Assembly: GCA_045546135.1 (NCBI GenBank)
Contig: JAZQCD010000010.1
Location: 1,766-65,765 of the forward strand
Reading direction: 5' to 3'
Source: Anaerovoracaceae bacterium
GTDB taxonomy: Bacteria; Bacillota; Clostridia; Peptostreptococcales; Anaerovoracaceae
Length of the DNA: 64,000 nucleotides
In this document: positions 29,373-42,918 of the stretch, in pieces
Layout: every line of letters starts with the position of its first letter
Position numbering within the stretch: position 1 is the stretch's first letter
Notes under the pieces: model-generated
Seen by the model: the letters and a program-made list of their open reading frames with translations, nothing else
Databases searched by the model: none
Told to the model about the DNA's origin: nothing
Made by a program: the position numbers and the translations under genes

Positions 29373-31922
29373 ATGAAAAGAATTTCGAAAAAAATTTCAT
29401 TGATGAAACTGATCATCATGGCGGCAATAATTGCCGCCATGTTTCCTTGCAAAGCCTTTGCAGAAAGCACAAGTCTTGATACGGGCATAGAAGGACTTTA
29501 TGCAGAATATGATGGAGGCTCATGGACAAGTTCCGGCAATATGATCACCGGTTCTGCTACGGGGACCGCAGAGGATATATGGGACTATGCAAAGAGCGCT
29601 GAAGGGACATTGGTCTTAAAGAATTCTCTCAATGAAGATGCAGTTTTGTCCTTTTCATATTCAGTTACTTTGGCGCAGGGCGGAAAAGTGACCATAGATG
29701 ATGCAGAAGTTTTGGAGAGCGGCAGCTTTTCAAAAAGGCTCGCTCCAAATGAAACTGTTGAAATAACCATTTTTTCAGGAGATCCGGGAGCAAGGACCTC
29801 TGCTGCTGAACTTAAAGGCATCACCTTTACAAAGAAAGTCCACGCCAACGTGACTTTCATGCCTTCAGAATCTGGCGGCTACTATACAGTAGACGGAGAA
29901 ACTGTCACAGAAAAGCTTGTCATAGGGCGCGATGCAGAAGATGGTTTTGATCTCCAAGCCTTCCCAAGTGAAGGATACAAGCTCCTTGGCTGGTATTCAG
30001 ATGCGATCGGTGGATACTTAGGAGACTCAATAGCATTTACGGCATTTTTTGACAGGGACCAGACTGTCTATCCTGTATTTGCAGATGAAGACCTTCCCAT
30101 ATGGCAAGCAGGTGTATATAGATCTTCAGATCTTAATGATGCTGTCCTTTACGCAGCTGAAAATGATATAGAGACCATAGTCCTTGCATCAAGCGGTACT
30201 ATTCCTGCAGGGACATATACTATTCCTTTTGGGCATACTCTCCTGATCCCTTATGACAATGCGGGCACTGTAAACAGGGAAACTCCTGATATATATAAGG
30301 CTTTGGATGCCTTTGCTCCCTATCCGTTCAGGACCCTCACCATGGAGGGAGGAGCTGTGCTTGATATAAAGGGCGCTCTCAATGTAAACGGCAAGATAAA
30401 CTCTGACAATACAGGCTATACGGGAGTAACATCGGGTCCTTACGGATATATATCTATGGAAGAGGGCAGCTCCATAAACCTTAGCAGCGGCGCTTCTTTA
30501 TACTGCTGGGGATATATAGCTGGAGACGGCAGCATCACTGCGGCAAGAGGGTCTTCTGTATTTGAACCATTCCAGATAGCAGACCTAAGAGGCGGTACTG
30601 CTACATCTGCAATGAACAACAATGCAGCAAGGGTCCTTCCTTTCCAGCAGTACTATATACAAAACATCGAAGTTCTCACTGTATACGAGTATGGTTCAAG
30701 AGGACTTGCTGTAGGCTCAACAACCATAGACGGAGACGTGGCAGTTCCTACTCTTAACTTTGCAGGACCTGAAGACGGAAGCCTGTTTAGACTCTCTGCA
30801 GGTTCTTCCTTTTCAAAGAGGTATGACCCAAAAGAAGACAGAGTATATTACGAGATAGACGGGGATGCGAACTTGTCTCCTGTGTCCATACATGCATATA
30901 TAAATGTATATTCAGATAAATATACCCTTCCTTTAATGGAGAATACGACTGTCATCATAAAGTCAGGAACTGTTACTCTTGATCAGGACCTTTGCCTTCT
31001 TCCCGGCAATGAGACAGTAATTGAAAGAGGAGCAGCCCTAAAAGTATCTTCAGGAAACAAACTGTATATATATGACAGGGATGACTACATGGGCAAAGGC
31101 TTTCTCTTTGAAGGCGCTGACATGATGCCCAGCTTCTATCAGCCGGACAGAAAGCCGTCCGATGTATTTGATGAAAGCAAGATGGTCGATGCCATTCTTG
31201 ATGTCTGCGGCAGGCTCGAGGCAGAAGGCAGTGTCTTTACTACTAAGGGCGGAGCAAACATCACCAGCTCAAACGGTCTTGGAAGAGTGGTCTTCATTTC
31301 TGCTGCTTCGGGTCCTGAACTTACCTATCAGACAGTCCAGACAGGTACAGAGGTCGAGTACCAAGGCATAGAGGCAGTACCTCCCATGCTGAAGAACGGA
31401 GTCTTTGGACAAGAGGATGGGTATACACTCACCACCGGCAGCGAAGGGGGTTCATATTTCAGCTATTGCAAAAAAGAGGACAAATGGCATACAGGAGATC
31501 CATGCCAGGATGCAGCTATAACGGTCATTCCTTATCCGCAGGATGCATTTACGGAGTGGACAGACTATGTGGCCCGCGAGAGGACAGTGAATGTCTTTTA
31601 CGACATTCCGTGCAGAGCAGGCTATCTTAAGGACGGAAGGTATGTAAAGCTTGAGCCAAGGAAAGAGGCAGACGGAAGCTATAGTTTCGATGCTCCTGAA
31701 GGTGTAGATGAACTCATACTTGTGATACTTGGCGATGTGAATCTTGACGGCAGGATATCCAATGCAGATTCGACAAAACTCAAGGCCTCAGTAAAGGGAA
31801 TGGCAGCCTTGGATCTTGTTCAGGAATTCGCTGCTGATGTCAACGGAGATAAAAAGATATCCAATGCAGATTCAACGAAATTAAAGGCTGTCGTAAAGGG
31901 TATGACGACCCTTGGCTGGTAG
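29373..31922 (+). CDS. secreted protein of unknown function with a C-terminal dockerin
   Basis: 849 aa with a signal peptide (..MFPCKAFA-ES), one GYKLLGWYSD Listeria-Bacteroides-type repeat, and a long Gly/Ser/Thr-rich, possibly beta-helical, middle. A dockerin sits at the C-terminus. It starts 3 nt after the previous stop. Confidence 0.8.
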   Translation: MKRISKKISLMKLIIMAAIIAAMFPCKAFAESTSLDTGIEGLYAEYDGGSWTSSGNMITGSATGTAEDIWDYAKSAEGTLVLKNSLNEDAVLSFSYSVTLAQGGKVTIDDAEVLESGSFSKRLAPNETVEITIFSGDPGARTSAAELKGITFTKKVHANVTFMPSESGGYYTVDGETVTEKLVIGRDAEDGFDLQAFPSEGYKLLGWYSDAIGGYLGDSIAFTAFFDRDQTVYPVFADEDLPIWQAGVYRSSDLNDAVLYAAENDIETIVLASSGTIPAGTYTIPFGHTLLIPYDNAGTVNRETPDIYKALDAFAPYPFRTLTMEGGAVLDIKGALNVNGKINSDNTGYTGVTSGPYGYISMEEGSSINLSSGASLYCWGYIAGDGSITAARGSSVFEPFQIADLRGGTATSAMNNNAARVLPFQQYYIQNIEVLTVYEYGSRGLAVGSTTIDGDVAVPTLNFAGPEDGSLFRLSAGSSFSKRYDPKEDRVYYEIDGDANLSPVSIHAYINVYSDKYTLPLMENTTVIIKSGTVTLDQDLCLLPGNETVIERGAALKVSSGNKLYIYDRDDYMGKGFLFEGADMMPSFYQPDRKPSDVFDESKMVDAILDVCGRLEAEGSVFTTKGGANITSSNGLGRVVFISAASGPELTYQTVQTGTEVEYQGIEAVPPMLKNGVFGQEDGYTLTTGSEGGSYFSYCKKEDKWHTGDPCQDAAITVIPYPQDAFTEWTDYVARERTVNVFYDIPCRAGYLKDGRYVKLEPRKEADGSYSFDAPEGVDELILVILGDVNLDGRISNADSTKLKASVKGMAALDLVQEFAADVNGDKKISNADSTKLKAVVKGMTTLGW
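31731..31919 (+). other. dockerin module (two Ca-binding loop + helix segments)
   Basis: GDVNLDGRISNADSTKLKASVKG ... ADVNGDKKISNADSTKLKAVVKG. Both loops fit D-x-N-x-D-x(6)-D. Confidence 0.8.
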
Positions 31923-31954
31923 TAAGAAAATGACATATGATAAAGATATAACGG

Positions 31955-31983
31955 CATCCCCGCATCGGCGGGGATGTTTTTGT
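31955..31983 (+). terminator. intrinsic terminator
   Basis: CATCCCCGC-ATCG-GCGGGGATG followed by TTTTTGT. Confidence 0.85.
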
Positions 31984-32156
31984 GTTATCCGTATCCTAAT
32001 ATTTTTTTATTATACAAACATAAAAATATCAAAAATTATTTGTATCCAAGAACTAAAATTATATTGCATCTGAGTTTTAAGAATAGTAAAATACCAAGGT
32101 ATACATAACTAATATTCTTAATGTTATTCCATTTAAGAAGAGAAAGAGGAAATATT

Positions 32157-35100
32157 ATGAAGGGATTCAAAAAAATCACGAGTTTGCTGCTCGTATTTGC
32201 TCTCCTTCTCACCTCAGGTCTTGTCACAAAGTTCTCCTTTGCTGACGAAGACGAGTCCAAGGGACAGGAAGTCTCCTGGCAGGTGGTAGAGAACGATGCA
32301 GACAGAATAGCAGACAGGCTCAACAGCAATGTGCCTTTCGATGATGTCACCGGAATGGAGACTCTGACAGGTACAGTGCGTGTATCCATCCTTCTGGATC
32401 AGCCCTCCACTCTGGATCAGGGATACGAAGCAGCATCCATAGCTTCCAACAGGAGCGCTATGAACTACAGAGCTTCTCTTGAGAAAGCTCAGGACGAACT
32501 TGCTGCCAAGATCTCAAAGAATATCCTCGGCGGAGAAGAGCTGGATGTTGTCTGGAACCTGACATTGGCAGCAAATATCATTTCTGCCTATGTTCCGGCA
32601 GAGAAGATCCCGGCTATCAAGGCTATGAAGGGCGTTAAGGACGTAGTTGTTGAAAACACCTACGAACCTATGGATGACGTAGAGACATCCGATGAACCTA
32701 ACATGGCAGTTGCCTCCGGAATGACTGGTGCCCAGTACGGCTGGGGAGCAGGCTACACCGGTGCAGGCAGTCTCATCGCCATCGTCGATACAGGACTTGA
32801 TGTTGACCATCAGTCATTCAGTTCTGTAGCATACGATATGGCTATAGCAAGACTCAAAGCCACAACAGGAAAAGAAGTAGACCAGCTCACAGCAGAAGAA
32901 GTTGCATCAGTATGGTCACAGCTCAATGCATCCAAGAGGACGAGAGGAACAGTCGATCAGACATATTTCGGTTCCAAGGTCCCTTACGGATTCAACTATG
33001 TTGACAGAAACTTCAACATCATCCACATCAACGATACCCAGGGCGAGCACGGTTCTCACGTTGCAGGTATCGCTGCAGGAAACAGGTTCATATATGAAGA
33101 ATCTGAAGACGGCAGCTTCACACTGAAGAATGCTATTTCCGCAGTAGGAACACAGGGCAACGCTCCTGATGCTCAGCTCCTCATCATGAAGGTATTCGGA
33201 CGCGGCGGCGGAGCTTCCGATTCCGACTACTTTGCAGCCATCGAGGACGCAATAGTTCTCGGAGCAGATGCAGTCAACCTTTCACTTGGTTCTGCAAGCA
33301 AGGGCTTTGCATACAATGCAACTTATGCAGATCTTATAAACAGACTGACAAACACCAATATCATCTGGGCTAACTCCGCAGGAAACAGCGGAGCATGGGC
33401 AGACGCCACCTTTGCAGGCTATACCTACAGCGACCATGTAAACATGGGCACAGGCGGATCCCCTGCAACCTATTCCAACACTCTGTCAACAGCATCTGTT
33501 GACAATGACGGATCTATCGGTGCATATATGCTTGTGGGCGAGGATATGATCTACTATACAGAGACTTCCGGATACGGAAATGCTCCTATGAAGACCATCC
33601 CCGGCACATATCAGTATGTATATATCGACAGCGCAGGACTTCAGGAAGAGTTCGATGCACTCGGACAGGAAATAATCGGCGGAAAGATCGGTATCGCAAA
33701 CCGTGGAACAACATCCTTCTTCCAGAAGGCAAACGGTGCTATGTCCAACGGAGCTATAGCCGGTATCATCGTCAACAACCAGCCGGGAACCATCAGCATG
33801 AACCTGACAGGTTACGAGTATAGTGCTCCTGTAGTATCCATACTCCAGACAGATGGAGCGATCTTGAAGGCGGCAGCTGAAGAGACAGTAGAATATGATG
33901 ACGGAACACTTTCCTTCACATACTATATAGGAACCATCACAGTTGATGACAAGCTCGGTATAAACAACTACAACAGCGAATACTATACAATGAGCTCCTT
34001 CTCAAGCTGGGGCGTTCCTGAAGATCTGTCCTTAAAGCCTGAGATCACAACTCCCGGCGGAAACATCTATTCCGTAAACGGTTATGCAAATTCAGACAGC
34101 GGAATCACTGGCGGACACGATCAGTATGAGCTCATGTCAGGTACATCCATGGCATCTCCTCAGACAGCAGGTATAGTCGGTATCATGTCCCAGTTCTACA
34201 GAGAGTCAGGACTCAAAGAAAGAGCAGATGCTTATGGCCTTACACAGCGCCACATCCTCCAGAGTCTCCTTATGTCCACAGCAAGACCTCTTTACGACAA
34301 GGATTCCGGTAACTACTACAGCGTAATGAAGCAGGGCGCAGGTCTTGCGGATGTCAACGCTGCCATGAACGCAAACGTATTCGTTCTCATGAATGGAACG
34401 ACTGTCGGCGGTGAAGTCAGAAAAGACATTTCTGCATATGCAGCTGACGGAAAAGTCAAGGCAGAACTTGGTGATGACCCGCACAGATCCGGTTTCTATA
34501 CAGTTGAGTTCACGCTCAACAACCTTACAGACGAAGATCGTTTCTATGATCTTGAAGCTGAATTCTTCACTCAGGATGTATTCGGATACTATACATTTGA
34601 TTCCAACGGAGAGCCTATCGCTGATGAGGAAGGAAACCCGGTAGTATCCACATACCTTGATGAGTGGACAGCACCTCTTAGTGCAAATGTCAGGTGGTTC
34701 CTCGACGGAAGAGAATGCATTCCTGATTTCTTCATCGATCCTAACATGGACGGTGAGTTCAATGAGGAAGATGCAGATGCAATACTCGACTTTGTTCTTA
34801 TGGACGGAACAGAAAACCCTGTAGAGATCAATGAAGATGACGCTGATCTCGACGGAGACGGCGCTGTCACCACATACGATGCATATCTTGCACTCAAGTA
34901 TGCAAATATGGGAACAACAGTAGTTCCAGCAAACGGAACAACAACTGTTAAGGTCGAATTCGAACTTACAGACATTGCAGATTACGATGACCACGGCGCA
35001 TTCGTAGAAGGATATATCTCTGCTACAGAAAAAGATTCCGAAGACGGCGAACTCGGAGTAAGACACTCCATCCCGGTACTCGGATACTACGGCAGCTGGA

Positions 35101-38100
35101 GCGAACCATCCTTCATAGATGTCGGATCCGTACGTGAATATGAATACGGTCTTGAGCAGAGAGCTCCGTATATGGCATATCCTCTCGGAACGGCTGCTGA
35201 AGACATCACCGCATTCTTAGGTACTCACGCAACACTCGGAGTCACCTATGTTCTCGGAGGCAACCCTGTCCTTACAGACAGCCAGTACTTCCCTGAAAGA
35301 AATGCTGTAAACAGCAACACAGCCCTTGCAGGTGCATCCTATACACTTATAAGGAACACCGTAGGACTGAAATATCAGCTCTTCGATGAGAGCGGAAAGC
35401 TCATAAATGAATCAACAGGCGGATCAAACACTTACTCCTCTTACTATCACGTGAACCAGGCTAAGTGGATGAACACCAGCACATCTTCTTCCTATGGCTA
35501 CAGGCCATCTTCTGTAAAGGAAGGAGAAGAGGTAACTCTTGCACTGAGCTTTGCTTCCGAATATTATCGCAACAATGAAACAGGCGAGATAGCATGGGAT
35601 GAGATCCAGCCCACAAAGCAGCTCTCATTCGTTATCGACAACACAGCTCCTACAGTATCTTCCGTATTTGGAAAGAGAATGACAACTGAGGACTCCGATA
35701 CAGTCATACTTACACTCGCTGCAACAGACAACGAGTACATAGCAGGCGTATTCGTCTATGACGAAGCAGGCAACCAGCTCTATGGCGAAGGTTCAAGAAC
35801 AGACGCCAAGAAGGAAGGCGCCCGTGACAGAGGAGACTATGCTATCGTTCTCGACGGAGCAAATGTACCTGATCATCTCGAATTCGAGATCTGGGACTAT
35901 GCAGCCAACGTAACTACAGTCATGGTCAACCTCAACAAGGATGAACTCAGCGATCCTGTATCTGTAGTACTCGACACTGAAGAAGCTATGAGCGTTGTCG
36001 GCAATACTATCAAGATCAACGCAACAGTATATCCTTGGGGAACTGAGGATCAGAGAGTCACATGGACAAGCAGCGATGAAACAGTTGCAACAGTTGAGGA
36101 CGGTCTCGTACTCGGTGTTGGAGCAGGAACTGCAACCATTACAGCTACATCAGTTCTCGATCCTAACGCATCCGCAACATGCGAAGTCAAGTTCATAACC
36201 ATCGACAGAGACTTAAACGGAATCGTTTGGGATGAAAACGGTCAGGTATGGTTCTCAGAATTCAACCTGAACACACTTCCTGAATACACAAGACTTACAG
36301 ATGAAAGCTCAATAGTTCCTCTTACATCAACGGCATACGGTGCAGACGGAACTCTCTACGCTGTGACTTTCGATACAGAAGGATTCCTTTCTGACCTCTA
36401 TACAGTAGATGAAGGGACATTCGAGGCGACATTTGTAGGTTCCAATACTGAGATAGGATATATGGATCTGGCTCCTGCACCGAGCCTTGGAGAGAATATC
36501 CTCATGGGCGTATACGGACCTTATGCAGTCATCGTAGACGCAACAACAGGCGGATATGTCGGTGTATTCGATCTCAGCGCTTATATGACCGGAAGCTACC
36601 TTGTAGGTATCGCATACGAGGAACAGTACTATCATCCGCTCTACGGCAATACAGATTGGTACTTCTTCATTGATGACGCAGGTAATCTCTACAACTGTGG
36701 ATTCCTTCCATACAACGGATCTTACAGCAGATTCGGAGTATCTGCTGTCGGAAACCTCGGATCAACAGCAGATGTTCCTTACTTCCAGTCACTCTACTAT
36801 GACGGAACAGATCTTTACTGGTCCAACTACTCTGAAAGCAAGGGCGTTGTAGATGTCATATTCGTAAACGATCTCTATAACGACGGAGCCATCTTCAAGG
36901 CTGGTTCCTTCGCTCCGGACGTATGGCCTGTAGGAGGACTTTGGAACGAGAACATCAAGTCCATGATCGGCATAGCAGCAGAAGGCGGAGATAAGGCAGC
37001 TGCAGTTATTGACGAAAGTGGCGAACTCCTTGCAAAGGCAGAACCTATCAACTTCAGAAAAGTAAGCGCAGACGGCGGCCTCAATGCAGCAAATGTTCAG
37101 AGTGTTGTTTCCGGAGCAGGCCTCCTCGGAATAGAAACAGAAGTCAATGTTCCTGACAAGACGACCACAGCTACCATCACCATCGATGCAGCAGGCGACG
37201 TCCTCGGTGAAGACGGAGTTACTTATGTAACACACAACGGTCTTTACGAAGTTATCTACGATGCAGAGGTACTTGAAGTCGAAAGCTGCACATCAACTCT
37301 CGATCACTTCCGTGCATACGGAGTTGACGGCAGGGTCAAGGTCGTATTTGCAGACCTTGAAGGTGTAGCAGAAGGCGAAACAGTAGCAACCATCGTATTC
37401 AAGACGATTGAAAATGTTGATACTACAGTATACGTAGACACTATTGAATCCGAAGACAACTTCGAATCTTCTGAAGAAGAATACGAGATCCCGAAAGTAA
37501 AAGGCCATCTCGTTGTAACAGCATCTGATGCAAGCAAGGAATACGGTGAAGAGGATCCTGAACTCGAGTGGAGTGCAGAAGGATTTGTCGGAGATGACAC
37601 CGAAGAACTCCTCGAAGGTCTTGTAACAGTAACAAGAGAAGAGGGCGAAGATGTCGGCACATATGTGATCACTGTCGCAGGTCCTGAAGAGATCGATGAC
37701 TACACCATTGAATATGTAGAAGGTGAGTTTGAGATCACTAAGGCACACCTCGTGGTAACAGCATCCGATGCAAGCAAGGAATACGGCGAAGATGATCCTG
37801 AACTCGAGTGGAGTGCAGAAGGATTTGTCGGAGATGACACCGAAGAACTCCTCGAAGGTCTTGTAACAGTAACAAGAGAAGAAGGCGAAGATGTCGGAAC
37901 ATATGAGATCACAGTTACCGGTCCTGAAGAGATCGACAATTACACCATCGAATATGTAAACGGCACATTCGAGATCGAACAGAGCCTCACAGTCGTCGCT
38001 TACCCGCAGGATTCCTTCGTAGAGGATGAACAGTACCATGTTGAAGGCAATATACTTTGGGTCTCATACCCACAGGCATGCAAGGTTGGATACCTTGTAA

Positions 38101-38390
38101 ACGGAGAGTATGTAGCACTTCCTTACCACAATCTGACTCAGAACAGTTACATCTACCTCGTACCGGCTGATGTAAAGGAAGTCATCATCGTTGTAAAGGG
38201 CGATGTAAACCTTGACGGAAGTCTTTCAAATGCAGATGCTACAAAACTCAAGGCAGCTGTAAAGGGAGCAGCAGAACTTGATGCAGTTCAGGCATTCGCA
38301 GCAGATGTCAACGGTGACGGAAGCCTTTCTAACGCAGATGCTACAAAACTCAAAGCAGTTGTTAAGGGTGCAGCATCTCTTGACTGGTAA
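32157..38390 (+). CDS. giant secreted S8 subtilisin-family peptidase (cell-envelope-protease-like, with PA insert) ending in a dockerin
   Basis: Signal peptide, then an I9-like propeptide. The catalytic triad is in context: IAIVDTGLD, HGSHVAGIAAG, SGTSMASPQTAG. The PA-domain insert reads GKIGIANRGTTSFFQKA. There is a Big_2-like domain, two 80-aa repeats and a C-terminal dockerin. The ATG at 32157 follows the RBS AGAGGA. Confidence 0.9.
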   Translation: MKGFKKITSLLLVFALLLTSGLVTKFSFADEDESKGQEVSWQVVENDADRIADRLNSNVPFDDVTGMETLTGTVRVSILLDQPSTLDQGYEAASIASNRSAMNYRASLEKAQDELAAKISKNILGGEELDVVWNLTLAANIISAYVPAEKIPAIKAMKGVKDVVVENTYEPMDDVETSDEPNMAVASGMTGAQYGWGAGYTGAGSLIAIVDTGLDVDHQSFSSVAYDMAIARLKATTGKEVDQLTAEEVASVWSQLNASKRTRGTVDQTYFGSKVPYGFNYVDRNFNIIHINDTQGEHGSHVAGIAAGNRFIYEESEDGSFTLKNAISAVGTQGNAPDAQLLIMKVFGRGGGASDSDYFAAIEDAIVLGADAVNLSLGSASKGFAYNATYADLINRLTNTNIIWANSAGNSGAWADATFAGYTYSDHVNMGTGGSPATYSNTLSTASVDNDGSIGAYMLVGEDMIYYTETSGYGNAPMKTIPGTYQYVYIDSAGLQEEFDALGQEIIGGKIGIANRGTTSFFQKANGAMSNGAIAGIIVNNQPGTISMNLTGYEYSAPVVSILQTDGAILKAAAEETVEYDDGTLSFTYYIGTITVDDKLGINNYNSEYYTMSSFSSWGVPEDLSLKPEITTPGGNIYSVNGYANSDSGITGGHDQYELMSGTSMASPQTAGIVGIMSQFYRESGLKERADAYGLTQRHILQSLLMSTARPLYDKDSGNYYSVMKQGAGLADVNAAMNANVFVLMNGTTVGGEVRKDISAYAADGKVKAELGDDPHRSGFYTVEFTLNNLTDEDRFYDLEAEFFTQDVFGYYTFDSNGEPIADEEGNPVVSTYLDEWTAPLSANVRWFLDGRECIPDFFIDPNMDGEFNEEDADAILDFVLMDGTENPVEINEDDADLDGDGAVTTYDAYLALKYANMGTTVVPANGTTTVKVEFELTDIADYDDHGAFVEGYISATEKDSEDGELGVRHSIPVLGYYGSWSEPSFIDVGSVREYEYGLEQRAPYMAYPLGTAAEDITAFLGTHATLGVTYVLGGNPVLTDSQYFPERNAVNSNTALAGASYTLIRNTVGLKYQLFDESGKLINESTGGSNTYSSYYHVNQAKWMNTSTSSSYGYRPSSVKEGEEVTLALSFASEYYRNNETGEIAWDEIQPTKQLSFVIDNTAPTVSSVFGKRMTTEDSDTVILTLAATDNEYIAGVFVYDEAGNQLYGEGSRTDAKKEGARDRGDYAIVLDGANVPDHLEFEIWDYAANVTTVMVNLNKDELSDPVSVVLDTEEAMSVVGNTIKINATVYPWGTEDQRVTWTSSDETVATVEDGLVLGVGAGTATITATSVLDPNASATCEVKFITIDRDLNGIVWDENGQVWFSEFNLNTLPEYTRLTDESSIVPLTSTAYGADGTLYAVTFDTEGFLSDLYTVDEGTFEATFVGSNTEIGYMDLAPAPSLGENILMGVYGPYAVIVDATTGGYVGVFDLSAYMTGSYLVGIAYEEQYYHPLYGNTDWYFFIDDAGNLYNCGFLPYNGSYSRFGVSAVGNLGSTADVPYFQSLYYDGTDLYWSNYSESKGVVDVIFVNDLYNDGAIFKAGSFAPDVWPVGGLWNENIKSMIGIAAEGGDKAAAVIDESGELLAKAEPINFRKVSADGGLNAANVQSVVSGAGLLGIETEVNVPDKTTTATITIDAAGDVLGEDGVTYVTHNGLYEVIYDAEVLEVESCTSTLDHFRAYGVDGRVKVVFADLEGVAEGETVATIVFKTIENVDTTVYVDTIESEDNFESSEEEYEIPKVKGHLVVTASDASKEYGEEDPELEWSAEGFVGDDTEELLEGLVTVTREEGEDVGTYVITVAGPEEIDDYTIEYVEGEFEITKAHLVVTASDASKEYGEDDPELEWSAEGFVGDDTEELLEGLVTVTREEGEDVGTYEITVTGPEEIDNYTIEYVNGTFEIEQSLTVVAYPQDSFVEDEQYHVEGNILWVSYPQACKVGYLVNGEYVALPYHNLTQNSYIYLVPADVKEVIIVVKGDVNLDGSLSNADATKLKAAVKGAAELDAVQAFAADVNGDGSLSNADATKLKAVVKGAASLDW
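34737..34912 (+). other. internal dockerin-like double EF-hand module inside the subtilase
   Basis: DPNMDGEFNEEDADAILDFVL ... DLDGDGAVTTYDAYLALKYA. Both segments fit the dockerin loop-helix pattern. Confidence 0.6.
37500..37979 (+). repeat. tandem direct duplication, 2 x 240 bp (2 x 80 aa, YG-type Ig-like/MBG-like repeat)
   Basis: Copies at 37500-37739 and 37740-37979. By hand count there are about 30 mismatches in 240, with an 89-nt perfectly identical core (37554-37642 = 37794-37882). Confidence 0.9.
38199..38387 (+). other. dockerin module of the subtilase
   Basis: GDVNLDGSLSNADATKLKAAVKG ... ADVNGDGSLSNADATKLKAVVKG. Confidence 0.8.
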
Positions 38391-38432
38391 AAACGATCAG
38401 ACGTAACTTTTCGTAAAGTTTATGTTATCTAG

Positions 38433-38465
38433 CGGCGAGGTCTATGTGCCTCGCCGTTTCTTTTG
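38433..38465 (+). terminator. intrinsic terminator
   Basis: CGGCGAGG-TCTATGTG-CCTCGCCG followed by TTTCTTTTG. Confidence 0.8.
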
Positions 38466-38577
38466 TACGATTTTTCCAAAAATAACGGAACAAATGTCGA
38501 AAAATACTTGAATGTTGCGCTGGAAATCTGATACAATTATCGGTAAATCGTTATGCCCAAAAATAGGAGGTTCGGCT

Positions 38578-40236
38578 ATGAAAAAAAGTAAATTTATTTT
38601 ATGCTTTATCTTAGCTGTTGCAATGTTAGTAAGCGTCGTCCCCTTTGGGGACATGGTCTTTGCTGCGGACAAGGATTACAAATTTAAATACAGCGTATCC
38701 TCGAATGCGAACAACGGCACTGTAGGTAATGTTACAGGTACAGTATATGATGACTATTCTGCAGACATCGTCTTTACAGGCAGCGCAGTCAACAGAAGCA
38801 ATGCTAAGGTAGAGATCTGGATGAAGAATGTTGCAAGTCTTGGCGTATCAGATCCTAAGTACTATGTGAGAAATGTAGAAACGGGTCTTACGGGCGAAGA
38901 CACTTCCATGGATAACGTCAAAGCGAGATTCAATGGATTTAACGAGGAAACCACATTCAATGTGACCGTAAACGGTGACAAAAAGATGTCCTATAAGGTC
39001 AAGAACGAGATCGGCAGCGACATGAAGGTCGTTAAGGTCAACGCAACTCCGAGCAGCTTCGAGGAAGCTCATGATGTCTGGTATGCCATTACGGCTGAAG
39101 AAAACATCAAGACGACACATGACGGAGAAAGAGACAGCTTCTTCCTTATCAAAAACGGTTCATGGCTTCAGGTAGGAGACCAAAAGGTCGAATTCGAAGG
39201 AAGCGATGATCTTAAGATCGACAATGTAGGACAGCTCAAATACATCTATGATTCCATCAAGGCGGCTCTTGCTCTCAATACAGTTGAAGCAGGAGAAGAA
39301 GCAGAAGGCATAGTCCTTTACTTTGAACCCCACACTGTCTTCTCAGTAGGAGCAAGCAGCGTAGAACTGTTAAAGGATGCCAGAGTCACAGTAAAGATGG
39401 AGACCGAAGATCTCATCGATTCCATAAAGGCTCTTCAGGAAAGCGAAGATTCTGAAGCTCTGATCAAGGATATGCTTGCGTTCATCGAGAATGTGATCAC
39501 TGAAGTAGGCGGAAAGTCAAACGATATCGACATAGAGTTCGGCCACAAGTATCCTGCACAGGGTGAAGATGAAAACAACCCCACCTGGGAATGGGCAGAG
39601 GATTACTCCTGGGCAAAGGCAACCTTCACCTGCACAAACAACGATACACACGAAAAAGAGACCTTTGATGCAACTGTTACATCAAAAACAGAAGGCGGAA
39701 AGACCATCTATACTGCAACCGTTACAGTAAACGGAGAAGAGTATACGGATACAAAGGAAGTGCAGAACGACATAATCGTTGAACCGCATGCAGAAAATGA
39801 ACGCTTTTTCGAAAATGAGGACGATAAGGATGTAACTAACGATGCGTTTGATTCATATACGATCAACGGACATGTAGTAACGGTCAAGTGTAAGCTTCCA
39901 TGCAGGATCGGATATCTCGAGGAAGGCGCAAAAGTATATACGCCTGTAAAGGCAGTTTTGCTCGAAGGCACTACCGATCAGTATACATATACGGTTCCTG
40001 ACCATATCAACAAGGTAATACTCGTATTGGTCGGAGATGCAAATCTTACAGGAAACCATTCTAACGCTGATTCAACTGCCACCAAGGCACATATCAAGGG
40101 CATCAATTATCTTGATGTTATCGAGCAGTTTGCAGCGGATGCCAACTTCAGCAATTCAATTTCAAATGCAGACTCTACATCCATAAAGGCGCATATCAAA
40201 GGCATCAGATACTTTAAGTGGGAAGTGCAAGAATAA
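38578..40236 (+). CDS. secreted protein of unknown function with a divergent C-terminal dockerin-like module
   Basis: The ATG at 38578 follows AGGAGG. The signal peptide is MKKSKFILCFILAVAMLVSVVPFGDMVFA. The C-terminus reads GDANLTGNHSNADSTATKAHIKG ... ADANFSNSISNADSTSIKAHIKG. Confidence 0.75.
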   Translation: MKKSKFILCFILAVAMLVSVVPFGDMVFAADKDYKFKYSVSSNANNGTVGNVTGTVYDDYSADIVFTGSAVNRSNAKVEIWMKNVASLGVSDPKYYVRNVETGLTGEDTSMDNVKARFNGFNEETTFNVTVNGDKKMSYKVKNEIGSDMKVVKVNATPSSFEEAHDVWYAITAEENIKTTHDGERDSFFLIKNGSWLQVGDQKVEFEGSDDLKIDNVGQLKYIYDSIKAALALNTVEAGEEAEGIVLYFEPHTVFSVGASSVELLKDARVTVKMETEDLIDSIKALQESEDSEALIKDMLAFIENVITEVGGKSNDIDIEFGHKYPAQGEDENNPTWEWAEDYSWAKATFTCTNNDTHEKETFDATVTSKTEGGKTIYTATVTVNGEEYTDTKEVQNDIIVEPHAENERFFENEDDKDVTNDAFDSYTINGHVVTVKCKLPCRIGYLEEGAKVYTPVKAVLLEGTTDQYTYTVPDHINKVILVLVGDANLTGNHSNADSTATKAHIKGINYLDVIEQFAADANFSNSISNADSTSIKAHIKGIRYFKWEVQE

Positions 40237-40411
40237 TTCATATTTATGTAAAAAAAATGTAGAGTTTTGAACGTTATTGGATTATAATTAATGAAAGAGA
40301 ATGGGTGGGTAGTCTTACTGTTCAAAACGATTTGGGAAGTAGGACTGTTCAGTCGATTCTTTAGATATTTTAGGTTTTTATTTTTCAAACTATAAAACGG
40401 AGGTCATGAGA

Positions 40412-42193
40412 ATGAAAAAGAAACTGATTGCAGTACTCCTCTGCATGGTGCTTGTCATAGCGGCTGTGCCGAGCGTATTTGCAGCAAACGACAGGGAGGT
40501 CACATTTACAGTAACACAGAGTCCTGTAAGCCTCACACAGAGTGCCAGCGAACAGACAGTCACTCTTTCAGTTGATGCTAACAAGACCGTAACTGTAGAC
40601 GGCATTCAGGCAATGCTCCCATATCCGAATGCAGACGGAGAAACAGGACCCTGGACAATAAGTGCTATTGGAAACAAGACACTTACATTCAGAGGTGCCC
40701 ACTATCAGGTAAAGAAGGCTGACGATCCTACAACAGGTCAGATCACATGGGATTCTGAAGATCCTGAAACAGGTGATATGCCTTCTCTCGAAACAACTAA
40801 TCTTTTCACTGTCACCTACAAGATTCCTGCAGGTACACCTGCCGGTGAGTATGTTGTTGAGATCAATGATTTTGAGCTCACAGACAACGGCGGAGACATT
40901 TGGGAATCAACAAGTCTCACATATACAGTTGTTATCGAAGAAGCTCCTACACCGCTTAACGGCGTAACAGTTGCTCCGGAAACAGCAACACTCTTCCCCG
41001 GAGATACTCAGGAACTCGTAGCTACATATGATCCTGAAAAGCCATCTATCCAAACAGCAACATGGACATCCAGCGACACAACAGTTGCAACAGTTGACGA
41101 AGACGGAGTTGTAAAAGCAGTTGCAGGCGGAACAGCAACTATTACTCACACAGTAACAGACGTTCTTGGCAACACAAAGACAGCTACAGCTACCATTACT
41201 GTTTACAAGACAGTTGACAAGCCGACAGCAGCAACAGGACTTAAGTATACAGGTTCTGAACAGACAGGCGTTGCAGCAGCAACAGGATACACAGTTGAAG
41301 GCGGCAAGGGAACAAATGCAGGCAACTACACAGCAACTGCAACACTTGCAGAAGGCTATGCATGGTCTGACAATACAACAGATCCTGTTCCGGTAGAATG
41401 GTCCATCGCTCCTAAGACAGTAGCAGCTCCGGCTCCGACTGAAACTGAGTTCGAATACAACGGCAAGGCTCAGACAGTTGCAGAAGGAACAAGCGAATAC
41501 ACAGTTGAGGGCGGAACACAGACAAACGCAGGCGAGTACACAGCAACAGCAACTCTCAAGGATGCAACAAACTATACTTGGGAAGACGGCAAAACAGCAC
41601 CTGTAACCATTGAATGGGTCATCACTCCAAAGGAAGTTGAACTTCCGGAGGCTAAGACAGGTCTTGTATATAACGGATCTGAGCAGACCGGTGTAGAAGG
41701 AACTGACGAATATACAGTCGAGGGCGGCAAGGAAACAAATGCCGGCACATATACAGCAACAGTAGCTCTCAAGGATAAGGCTAACTATGTTTGGGCGAAT
41801 AACGGACAGAGCGCAGATCAGACAGTAGATTGGGAGATCGAGCAGGCTGAACTTACAGCTGACAAACTCGAACTCGCAGTTGGCGGATCCAAGCAGCTTC
41901 CGGAAGAGGAAGGCGTATCCTATGAGCTCGTAGAGCCTGCAGAAGGTGAAGAGCCTGTTGTAGAACTCAGCGAAGACGGAACAGTCAAGGGTCTTAAGGA
42001 AGGTGAAGCAACCATCGTTGTAGTATCCAATGGACAAGGAAACTACAAGCGTGGTGATGCTGAGATCACAGTCACAGTGACCAAGCCTCCTGTAACCGGA
42101 GACAAGACAATGCTCTACATCGTTTCTGCAATAGCAGCACTCGTAGTTCTTGGTGCATATCTCATCGTATCCAAGAAGAAAGAGCAGAGATAA
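40412..42193 (+). CDS. cell-wall-anchored scaffoldin-like protein: cohesin-like domain + Big_2 + three repeats + PPVTG sorting signal
   Basis: Signal peptide (MKKKLIAVLLCMVLVIAAVPSVFA), then a beta-sandwich of about 155 aa with a cohesin-like pattern. A Big_2 domain follows (ATWTSSDTTVATVDEDGVVKAVAGGTATIT), then three repeats of about 65-72 aa. The C-terminus is PPVTG + hydrophobic helix + KKKEQR. An alternative ATG exists at 40406. Confidence 0.75.
   Translation: MKKKLIAVLLCMVLVIAAVPSVFAANDREVTFTVTQSPVSLTQSASEQTVTLSVDANKTVTVDGIQAMLPYPNADGETGPWTISAIGNKTLTFRGAHYQVKKADDPTTGQITWDSEDPETGDMPSLETTNLFTVTYKIPAGTPAGEYVVEINDFELTDNGGDIWESTSLTYTVVIEEAPTPLNGVTVAPETATLFPGDTQELVATYDPEKPSIQTATWTSSDTTVATVDEDGVVKAVAGGTATITHTVTDVLGNTKTATATITVYKTVDKPTAATGLKYTGSEQTGVAAATGYTVEGGKGTNAGNYTATATLAEGYAWSDNTTDPVPVEWSIAPKTVAAPAPTETEFEYNGKAQTVAEGTSEYTVEGGTQTNAGEYTATATLKDATNYTWEDGKTAPVTIEWVITPKEVELPEAKTGLVYNGSEQTGVEGTDEYTVEGGKETNAGTYTATVALKDKANYVWANNGQSADQTVDWEIEQAELTADKLELAVGGSKQLPEEEGVSYELVEPAEGEEPVVELSEDGTVKGLKEGEATIVVVSNGQGNYKRGDAEITVTVTKPPVTGDKTMLYIVSAIAALVVLGAYLIVSKKKEQR
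40490..40945 (+). other. cohesin-like domain (candidate dockerin receptor)
   Basis: EVTFTVTQSPVSL..TVTLSVDANKTVTVDGIQAMLPYP...GQITWDSE...LFTVTYKIPAGTPAGEYVVEINDFELTD. This matches the general cohesin strand pattern by eye and has not been HMM-verified. Confidence 0.5.
41219..41848 (+). repeat. three tandem protein repeats of about 65-72 aa (Y-x-G-x-x-Q ... TNAG-x-YTAT type)
   Basis: GLKYTGSEQTGV..GKGTNAGNYTATATL / EFEYNGKAQTV..GTQTNAGEYTATATL / GLVYNGSEQTGV..GKETNAGTYTATVAL. Confidence 0.75.
42086..42193 (+). other. sortase-type tripartite cell-wall sorting signal
   Basis: PPVTG (42086-42100), then DKTM, a hydrophobic stretch (LYIVSAIAALVVLGAYLIV) and a basic tail (SKKKEQR). Confidence 0.6.
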
Positions 42194-42230
42194 TTAAGAA
42201 GTAATCGATATTAATTATCATGACCATACG

Positions 42231-42265
42231 GGGGTCGGAGTTAAATGCTCCGGCCCCTGTTTTGT
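42231..42265 (+). terminator. intrinsic terminator
   Basis: GGGGTCGGAG-TTAAATG-CTCCGGCCCC followed by TGTTTTGTGTT. Confidence 0.8.
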
Positions 42266-42351
42266 GTTATGGACATAATCAAAGGTAAATCAAAGCTGCT
42301 GAAGGTCTTCCTTGAGGTGAATGTGAAGAAAATGTGAAAGAAGTAAAATTG

Positions 42352-42378
42352 TTAGCACTCATACTTGACGAGTGCTAA
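42352..42378. promoter_or_regulatory. CIRCE element (HrcA operator)
   Basis: TTAGCACTC-ATACTTGAC-GAGTGCTAA is a perfect match to the consensus TTAGCACTC-N9-GAGTGCTAA. Confidence 0.9.
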
Positions 42379-42393
42379 CAATAGTGATATAAC
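42365..42393 (+). promoter_or_regulatory. candidate sigma-A promoter of hsp20, overlapping CIRCE
   Basis: TTGACG (42365-42370), a 17-nt spacer, then TATAAC (42388-42393). Confidence 0.5.
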
Positions 42394-42477
42394 ATAATTG
42401 TCCCAAGGAGATAGGGACAAAGATAAATAAAATAAAAGGCTCTGAAAAAGAGTCCAAGACATATAGGAGGCAAAATT

Positions 42478-42918
42478 ATGTTATATCCAAGTATTTTTAG
42501 AAACGATCTATTTGACGACATGTTCAATGATTTTATGAAACCGGCAGTAAGCCAGAGAAACAATTTCTTCAGCCAGTCCAATATCATGAAAACTGATATC
42601 AAGGAATATGAAAAGGCTTATGAACTCGATGTAGAGCTCCCCGGTGTAAAGAAAGAAAACGTCAGCGTAGAACTTAAGGATGGCGCTCTTGAGATCAAAG
42701 TAGTATCCCAGTCAGAAAATGATGACAAGGATGAAAAGGGCAAATACCTAAGAAGAGAGAGATTCTACGGAAGCTGCAGCAGATCCTTCTATGTAGGAGA
42801 GGATGTAAAGCAGGAAGACATCAAAGCTAAGTTTGAAAACGGTGTTCTTGCAATAACTGTTCCTAAGGTAGAAGCTCAGCCGAAGGTCGAACAGAAGCAG
42901 CTCATTAATATTGAATAA
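42478..42918 (+). CDS. Hsp20/alpha-crystallin small heat-shock protein
   Basis: 146 aa with an alpha-crystallin core (YELDVELPGVKKENVSVELKDGALEI ... FENGVLAITVPK). Confidence 0.9.
   Translation: MLYPSIFRNDLFDDMFNDFMKPAVSQRNNFFSQSNIMKTDIKEYEKAYELDVELPGVKKENVSVELKDGALEIKVVSQSENDDKDEKGKYLRRERFYGSCSRSFYVGEDVKQEDIKAKFENGVLAITVPKVEAQPKVEQKQLINIE

Follow-up and report, generated by a model that had tools for sequence, protein, structure and literature searches.

A single-cohesin protein with a PPVTG sorting signal as the probable surface anchor of neighboring dockerin proteins in an Anaerovoracaceae bacterium

How a row of secreted dockerin proteins might be displayed at the cell surface, and whether the gene that follows them encodes their anchor, is the question raised by a locus of an Anaerovoracaceae bacterium. 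The DNA analyzed (hereafter the window) is a stretch of 64,000 nucleotides covering positions 1,766 to 65,765 of the forward strand of contig JAZQCD010000010.1 (GenBank assembly GCA_045546135.1), and the gene in question is an open reading frame (ORF) on its + strand at 40406/40412-42193. The pyruvate kinase encoded in the window shares at most 62-65% identity with its best named matches, which come from Oscillospiraceae and Clostridiales metagenome-assembled genomes, and this points to an uncultured, Oscillospiraceae-like lineage of Clostridia. According to the domain map, the encoded protein consists, in this order, of a signal peptide, a cohesin, a Big_2 domain, three repeats of ~70 amino acids, another Big_2 domain and a sorting signal, with one cohesin and a wall-anchoring signal combined in a single protein. 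The genes upstream code for secreted proteins that end in an X module followed by a dockerin (XDoc). We consider it probable, at roughly 0.7, that this gene encodes an anchoring scaffoldin of the ScaE/Sca2 type, which would be linked to the wall by a sortase and would capture the products of its XDoc neighbors.

At the N-terminus, the region at 40484-40954 of the + strand (residues 27-183; residue numbers of this protein are counted from the ATG at 40406) had been described in the first-pass annotation as cohesin-like, and profile, fold and relatives now concur in its assignment as a cohesin module and presumed dockerin receptor. A profile (A1) built on eight orthologous N-terminal domains was searched against 1.84 billion representative proteins and retrieved 655 relatives at E<=1e-3 and 222 at E<=1e-10. 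The Pfam cohesin family PF00963 was accepted in all five of the multi-cohesin relatives scanned, with E-values of 1e-21 to 1e-73, and dockerins, or CttA_N, the X module known from the Ruminococcus flavefaciens system, are also present in some of them. The four best matches of this profile in the PDB are the R. flavefaciens cohesins 5m2o, 5m2s, 5aoz and 5n5p (E 0.004-0.015). At the structural level, an AlphaFold2 (AF2) model of the module, with a predicted local distance difference test (pLDDT) of 79.6 and a predicted template modeling score (pTM) of 0.77, finds mostly solved cohesins as its top matches in Foldseek (E ~3e-5, template modeling score up to 0.65), including CaCohA2, ScaC, an Archaeoglobus cohesin and the CipA/SdbA cohesins. 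Because the profile matches, the Foldseek matches and the recognition of its relatives as Pfam cohesins all point in the same direction, the N-terminal domain is, as judged from profile and model, a cohesin despite its sub-cutoff Pfam score.

Two points weigh against this identity, namely the 13.7 bits reached by the Pfam Cohesin model on the domain, with a cutoff of 24.1, and the only moderate confidence of the AF2 model, in which the loop residues 74-80 fall below a pLDDT of 50. Divergent ruminococcal cohesins likewise escape sequence models (PMC11557425; bioRxiv 2026.02.05.704116). The low Pfam score could also be accommodated by a generic beta-sandwich adhesin that acts alone and has dockerin genes as neighbors by chance, and the Foldseek search does return the non-cohesin sandwiches YcnI, PsaA and BslA at E ~1e-4. 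However, the best matches in sequence and in fold are cohesins, and the relatives found by the profile are multi-cohesin scaffoldins in Pfam terms; together with the linkage and the coupled divergence of the dockerin genes described below, this makes a stand-alone adhesin very improbable. As a side observation, a second small protein of ~320 amino acids with the same type of cohesin is encoded directly downstream of the anchor ortholog in two of the related loci (L007, 3088-4062; L019, 3756-4718), and therefore some loci encode two cohesin proteins.

At the opposite end of the protein, which terminates in ...TVTKPPVTGDKTMLYIVSAIAALVVLGAYLIVSKKKEQR, a predicted cell-wall sorting signal is found at 42086-42190 of the + strand. 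It comprises PPVTG (42086-42100), DKTM, a hydrophobic segment of 19 residues (42113-42169) and the basic tail SKKKEQR (42170-42190), and thus reads exactly as the tripartite C-terminus with PPVTG that had been proposed from inspection of the sequence. On the tail alone, the NCBIfam model TIGR01167 (LPXTG_anchor) scores 19.6-21.2 bits, above its cutoff of 15.9, and Pfam Gram_pos_anchor scores 12.7 bits (cutoff 20). Other sorting systems, such as PEP-CTERM, GlyGly-CTERM and PGF-CTERM, were considered and rejected, the top NCBIfam matches of the tail being all of the LPXTG type with none of these families listed at E<=10. The equivalent motifs of the orthologs are PPVTGD, TPATGD, TPQTGD, TPPTGD, AAPTGD and SAPTGD. 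In an alignment of nine orthologous sequences, which are 42-93% identical, the only invariant residues of the motif region are T, G, D and the T located two residues further on, and the helix that follows drifts among orthologs while this TGDxT stays fixed.

The arrangement extends beyond the orthologs, as manifested by two sets of proteins, one of 120 listed homologs found through the stalk domains and the other of the best 150 cohesin relatives. A hydrophobic-plus-basic tail is present in 52 of the 120 stalk-domain homologs, and xxxTG[DEG] lies just upstream of it in 47 of these 52; the first two positions are mostly SV, TP, AV or SP, and LP occurs once. Among the best 150 cohesin relatives the tail is present in 29, of which around 20 carry xPxTG[DE] (for instance NPQTGD, SPKTGD, VPKTGD and KPETGD) and none carries LPxTG. 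Since non-LPxTG signals are the rule among cohesin relatives, the PPVTG variant is unremarkable, and the alignments indicate that it is a real, conserved recognition-type motif that constitutes the norm for its clade and no oddity. The local rule appears to be roughly x[P/A]xTGD, looser than [SP]-P. The initial assignment of the signal to the (S/P)PxTG class is accordingly retained in one respect and relaxed in another: PPVTG followed by D fits (S/P)PxTGD, but the [SP]-P pair is not conserved, and the orthologs share only TGDxT. It has been demonstrated that the Clostridioides difficile sortase SrtB cuts in vitro between the T and the G of SPKTG, PPKTG, SPSTG and SPQTG, that it is most active on PPKTG and SPQTG and leaves LPETG uncut, and that its native substrates continue with D after the motif (PMC4155245).

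An alternative fate for the same C-terminus is that the helix serves as a permanent membrane anchor of a type-I-like tethered cohesin protein and that PPVTG is never cleaved. Several observations favor this alternative and weigh against sortase linkage. Position 1 of the motif is Pro and not the canonical Leu, with P, T, A or S in the orthologs, and the Pro of position 2 is replaced by Ala in two orthologs. In nine of the 29 tailed cohesin relatives the C-terminus is just a hydrophobic helix with a K/R tail, and the TG motif is missing. In addition, a search for sortases in the 64-kb window and in a set of 88 related loci fetched for comparison (0.98 Mb in total) gave nothing credible, by means of a TLxTC-type regular expression and of phmmer with an approximate Staphylococcus aureus SrtA query, both of limited sensitivity. 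The plain-helix relatives include P0259, P0260, P0263, P0264 and P0277. One cohesin family seems to employ sortase-type as well as simple membrane anchors, and membrane retention is therefore an option there. Against a permanent membrane anchor stand the invariance of TGDxT right before the helix in orthologs as distant as 42%, in which the helix itself drifts, the recurrence of xxxTGD-like motifs in unrelated surface proteins (the 47 of 52 mentioned above), the TIGR01167 score above cutoff and the fact that PPKTG is, with SPQTG, the best in vitro substrate of C. difficile SrtB (PMC4155245). As plain transmembrane tails do exist in the cohesin family and the sequence searched yielded no sortase, we regard a permanent membrane anchor as unlikely, and still as an alternative that keeps some weight. 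Sortase linkage of the cohesin protein remains the preferred reading.

The putative ligands of the cohesin are encoded on the + strand immediately upstream, by three consecutive XDoc genes whose products all have signal peptides. The first gene (29373-31922) codes for a secreted protein of 849 amino acids with its XDoc dyad at 31515-31919 (Pfam Dockerin_1 E 1.3e-5, XDoc alignment), which is the sole recognizable domain of this protein. The second (32121-38390) codes for an S8 subtilase of 2089 amino acids in which Pfam recognizes Peptidase_S8 with a PA insert, fn3_5, Big_2 and two copies of MBG_2 ahead of the C-terminal XDoc; its dyad lies at 37983-38387 (Dockerin_1 E 5.5e-10, XDoc hidden Markov model, HMM). 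The third (38512-40236) codes for a secreted protein of 574 amino acids with an XDoc at 39814-40233 that contains a non-canonical dockerin. The dyad shared by the three C-termini is ~135 amino acids long and is formed by an X module of ~70 amino acids (...PC[KR].GYL...) followed by the dockerin. With a profile built on eleven X-module-plus-dockerin dyads, the C-terminal dockerin half matches many solved dockerins (E 5e-13 to 1e-3), and no PDB sequence is matched by the X-module half. A search for XDoc in a 5.8-billion-protein index returned 9 matches, mostly fragmentary, which gave no picture of the range of cargo proteins.

The dockerin of the 574-amino-acid protein deserves separate consideration. 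Its presence in the gene preceding the cohesin gene had been stated in the first-pass annotation and is supported, since the XDoc of this protein is 40% identical over 124 amino acids to that of the S8 protease, though the dockerin is non-canonical and below the Pfam cutoff. Two features of it weigh against the scaffoldin reading: Dockerin_1 reaches 16.7 bits against a cutoff of 22.9, with 55 of the 57 model positions aligned, and the calcium loops of the dockerin (40021-40233), DANLTGNHSNAD and DANFSNSISNAD, have T/S and not D/N at position 5 of both. The second loop also has N in place of G at position 6. In one of the related loci (L008) the counterpart of this dockerin shows more canonical calcium loops. 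The rest of the 574-amino-acid protein has no match in Pfam or NCBIfam. No glycoside hydrolase turned up in the subset of window ORFs that was scanned; the dockerin proteins linked to the cohesin gene are the S8 protease and two proteins lacking an enzyme domain, and a cellulosomal context was not encountered.

The genomic arrangement ties the two halves of the proposed system together. XDoc genes adjoin the ortholog of the cohesin gene on every ortholog contig with enough flanking sequence (L002/L003, L004, L005, L006, L007/L019, L008, L009/L010, L013 and L015), and none was found in the ~70 loci related through the stalk repeat alone; within the 0.98 Mb of related sequence, XDoc occurs only beside orthologs of the cohesin gene. 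In a relative with 43% identity (L002/L003), the locus is syntenic with the window and comprises the S8-dockerin gene, an XDoc protein, the cohesin anchor, HSP20, MFS and TetR. The restriction of XDoc to the vicinity of the cohesin gene is hardly what an adhesin with dockerin genes adjacent by chance would display, and the same is true of the manner in which cohesin and dockerin diverge together.

This joint divergence is apparent when closely related strains are compared. The ortholog P0001 (L009) is ~95% identical to the window throughout. A second ortholog, P0002, has 75% overall identity to the window protein, which is distributed unevenly among its parts: 89% in the signal peptide, 40% in the cohesin, 79% in the first Big_2 domain, 93% in the repeats, 86% in the second Big_2 domain and 95% in the sorting signal. 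At the nucleotide level, the comparison of the window with L008 in 90-nucleotide bins (window 39877-40956 with L008 1-1051 for the mosaic patch) gives identities of 48-61% over the XDoc of the upstream gene (window 39877-40236), 88-99% over the spacer and signal peptide (40237-40506), 42-62% over the cohesin (40507-40956) and 81-100% over the stalk, the anchor and the downstream DNA (40957 onwards). In agreement with this pattern, XDoc genes of the same locus have dockerin helix signatures in common, and these are not the same from one locus to another. A co-evolving cohesin-dockerin pair would produce such coupled divergence, and the mosaic pattern suggests that a cognate pair was replaced or diversified in a coupled manner. 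One circumstance qualifies the reading of the patch in these terms: the sequence of L008 starts within the XDoc, and the comparison thus reaches upstream only as far as this module, beyond which the divergence may continue. The coupled divergence is nonetheless the strongest indirect support, drawn from sequence comparison, for binding of the neighbors' dockerins by the cohesin. A more speculative extension, which we put forward only tentatively and consider doubtful, is that the locus is a self-contained cassette for the surface display of a protease, in which binding specificity is switched between strains when the cohesin and the dockerin of the adjacent gene are replaced together, with the 574-amino-acid protein as a dedicated partner rather than mere cargo, such as one that competes for the cohesin or regulates its occupancy.

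Between the cohesin and the sorting signal lies a stretch of domains for which the role of a stalk is plausible. The elements described there by the first-pass annotation, a Big_2 domain, three tandem repeats and a second Ig-like domain, were all recovered, with the repeat block extending over 41219-41857. The first Big_2 Ig-like domain (40961-41170, + strand, residues 186-255) is recognized by PF02368 at E 1.2e-15 and has Big_2 matches in the PDB. The second (41846-42037, + strand, residues 481-544) reaches 23.0 bits with PF02368 (E 7.5e-5) for a cutoff of 22.8, a score obtained with the fragment scanned alone. The three tandem repeats of ~70 amino acids, predicted to be beta-rich, are located on the + strand at 41219-41425, 41432-41641 and 41642-41857 (residues 272-340, 343-412 and 413-484); they have ~50% mutual identity, are each matched by a repeat HMM at E 1e-36 to 1e-39, and number exactly three in every ortholog. 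Tandem Repeats Finder detected no DNA tandem repeats in the gene; the copies are too diverged at the DNA level and are therefore visible only as protein repeats.

The AF2 model of one repeat has a pLDDT of 97.7, and Foldseek finds no match for it in the PDB (best E 0.43). All Pfam models stay below threshold on the repeat, and its identification as MBG_2 or MpPF1 was rejected, the Pfam matches being only at E ~0.01 and hhalign giving a probability of 8% against the true MBG_2 copies of the neighboring protein. The repeat profile matches the Hoc Ig-like domain at E 5e-4, which represents only weak similarity. Since the Pfam, hhalign, profile and Foldseek matches are all weak or absent, the repeat has been left unclassified; profile and model indicate a beta-rich domain outside the classified families, and it may be an undescribed small domain of surface proteins. 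The repeat is widespread, with 160 copies in 40 of the 120 full-length-protein homologs listed; in the GTDB representative genomes, a peptide-pattern scan gave a single distant match, to the repeat domain. A stalk of Ig-like repeats combined with a sortase-type signal would also suit a subunit of a pilus or fibre polymerized by a class C sortase, as opposed to a wall-anchored monomer. However, neither a sortase, within the limited sensitivity of the searches described above, nor further pilin genes were found at the locus, which otherwise contains dockerin proteins and housekeeping genes, and we assign such a subunit only the slightest probability.

Taken as a wall-anchored monomer, the cohesin protein would act in a sequence of steps. 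It would be exported via Sec, and the hydrophobic segment at its C-terminus, together with the basic tail, would retain it for a time in the membrane, after which a sortase would cut between T and G of PPVTG and link the protein to peptidoglycan. The stalk of Big_2, three repeats and Big_2 would keep the single N-terminal cohesin clear of the wall, and the cohesin would then bind non-covalently the XDoc dyads of the 849-amino-acid protein, the 2089-amino-acid S8/PA protein and the 574-amino-acid protein, leading to their display at the surface.

The limits and the expression of the gene were also considered. A GGAGG at 40399-40403 stands 8 nucleotides ahead of the ATG at 40412 and only 2 nucleotides ahead of the ATG at 40406, and the N-terminal start MKKKL is also found in the orthologs P0001-P0003. 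Because of this spacing and of these ortholog N-termini, the ATG at 40412, already preferred in the earlier reading of the sequence, is the likely start codon. It is followed by a Sec-type signal peptide (40412-40483, + strand), read by inspection as MKKKLIAVLLCMVLVIAAVPSVFA before AND, with 89-93% identity to the corresponding stretches of P0001 and P0002. Downstream, the gene is closed by a predicted intrinsic terminator on the + strand (42228-42260) with a 14-bp stem, 9 of whose pairs are GC, followed by TTTGTGTT; other strong terminator-like hairpins are located at 31953-31978, after the gene of the 849-amino-acid protein, and at 38431-38458. On the minus strand, an ORF of 376 codons at 40907-42037 lies opposite the stalk-coding region; its Cys-rich product of low complexity is most likely a by-product of codon bias on the sense strand and no gene.

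The spacer upstream of the cohesin gene (40237-40411, + strand) contains no canonical intrinsic terminator that passes the terminator scan, which agrees with the previous claim that none separates the dockerin gene from the cohesin gene. It does contain a perfect TATAAT (40283-40288), accompanied by a poor -35 element, and an imperfect hairpin (40296-40362) of 29 pairs and -26.6 kcal/mol followed by a T-rich stretch. The equivalent spacers of relatives have TATAAT or TGTATAAT boxes, and that of L004 also has a GC-rich hairpin; Rfam gave no match over 38300-42600. The hairpin could be a stabilizer of the 5' untranslated region, a processing site or a weak terminator, and for the transcription of the cohesin gene both read-through from the gene of the 574-amino-acid protein and a separate promoter are possible as judged from these elements.

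Single-cohesin anchors of this layout have precedents. ScaE of R. flavefaciens and R. champanellensis, with a single cohesin and a sortase signal, is an established anchoring scaffoldin (PMC5301203). In ScaE, as in the window protein, a signal peptide precedes the only cohesin, and a linker or stalk joins this cohesin to a sortase signal at the C-terminus; standard HMMs fail on the divergent cohesins of both (PMC5301203; PMC11557425), and CttA_N, the X module known from the ScaE system, is found in some profile relatives of the window cohesin. ScaE binds the XDoc dyads of its partners, and the window protein would do the same. In contrast, the partners of ScaE are the cellulosomal ScaB and CttA, whereas those of the window protein would be an S8 protease and two function-unassigned proteins. 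The window system differs as well in its X module, for which the PDB offers no sequence match, in its stalk of Big_2 and a distinct 70-amino-acid repeat, and in its PPVTG, the signal of ScaE being described as LPXTG. Sca2 of R. bromii, which in its ~534 amino acids combines one cohesin with a predicted sortase signal, anchors the amylosome, and its cohesin binds dockerins of peptidases besides those of amylases, which makes it a general anchor for surface display (PMC4611034). The window protein resembles Sca2 in its single cohesin and sortase-type signal, a likeness of layout and not of sequence-level orthology, and it belongs to another organism and gene context, without amylases at the locus.

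As for the signal itself, the window protein shares with C. difficile SrtB substrates (PPKTGD, SPKTGD) an [SP]PxTG followed by D, a hydrophobic segment and a basic tail, but its orthologs also use TP, AA, SA and AP at positions 1-2, and the cohesin relatives NP, VP and KP. On the side of the cargo, the 2089-amino-acid protein resembles cell-envelope proteinases of the lactocepin/C5a-peptidase type in its S8, PA and fn3_5 domains. Enzymes of this type generally carry an LPXTG or wall-binding anchor of their own, whereas the protease of the window has a dockerin at its C-terminus, by which the cohesin protein would hold it indirectly. Sortase-anchored scaffoldins with a single cohesin, the binding of peptidase dockerins by Sca2 and the (S/P)PxTG motif of SrtB are thus established; what sets the window system apart is its lineage, its non-cellulosomal subtilase cargo, its particular X module, its stalk repeat and a motif rule as loose as x[P/A]xTGD.

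The current understanding of sortases and cohesins is left unchanged by these findings, and the co-replacement at strain level is their most interesting by-product. Proteins with x[P/A]xTGD will be overlooked by annotation pipelines and substrate predictors designed to search for LPxTG. For the biology of these bacteria, the locus adds a case of non-cellulosomal surface display by cohesin and dockerin from an uncultured gut or rumen lineage of Clostridia, in which the cargo of a sortase-type anchor would be a giant subtilisin-like protease and not carbohydrate-active enzymes, and the strain-level forms in which cohesin and dockerin have diverged together could serve as two natural alleles for studying how binding specificity evolves.

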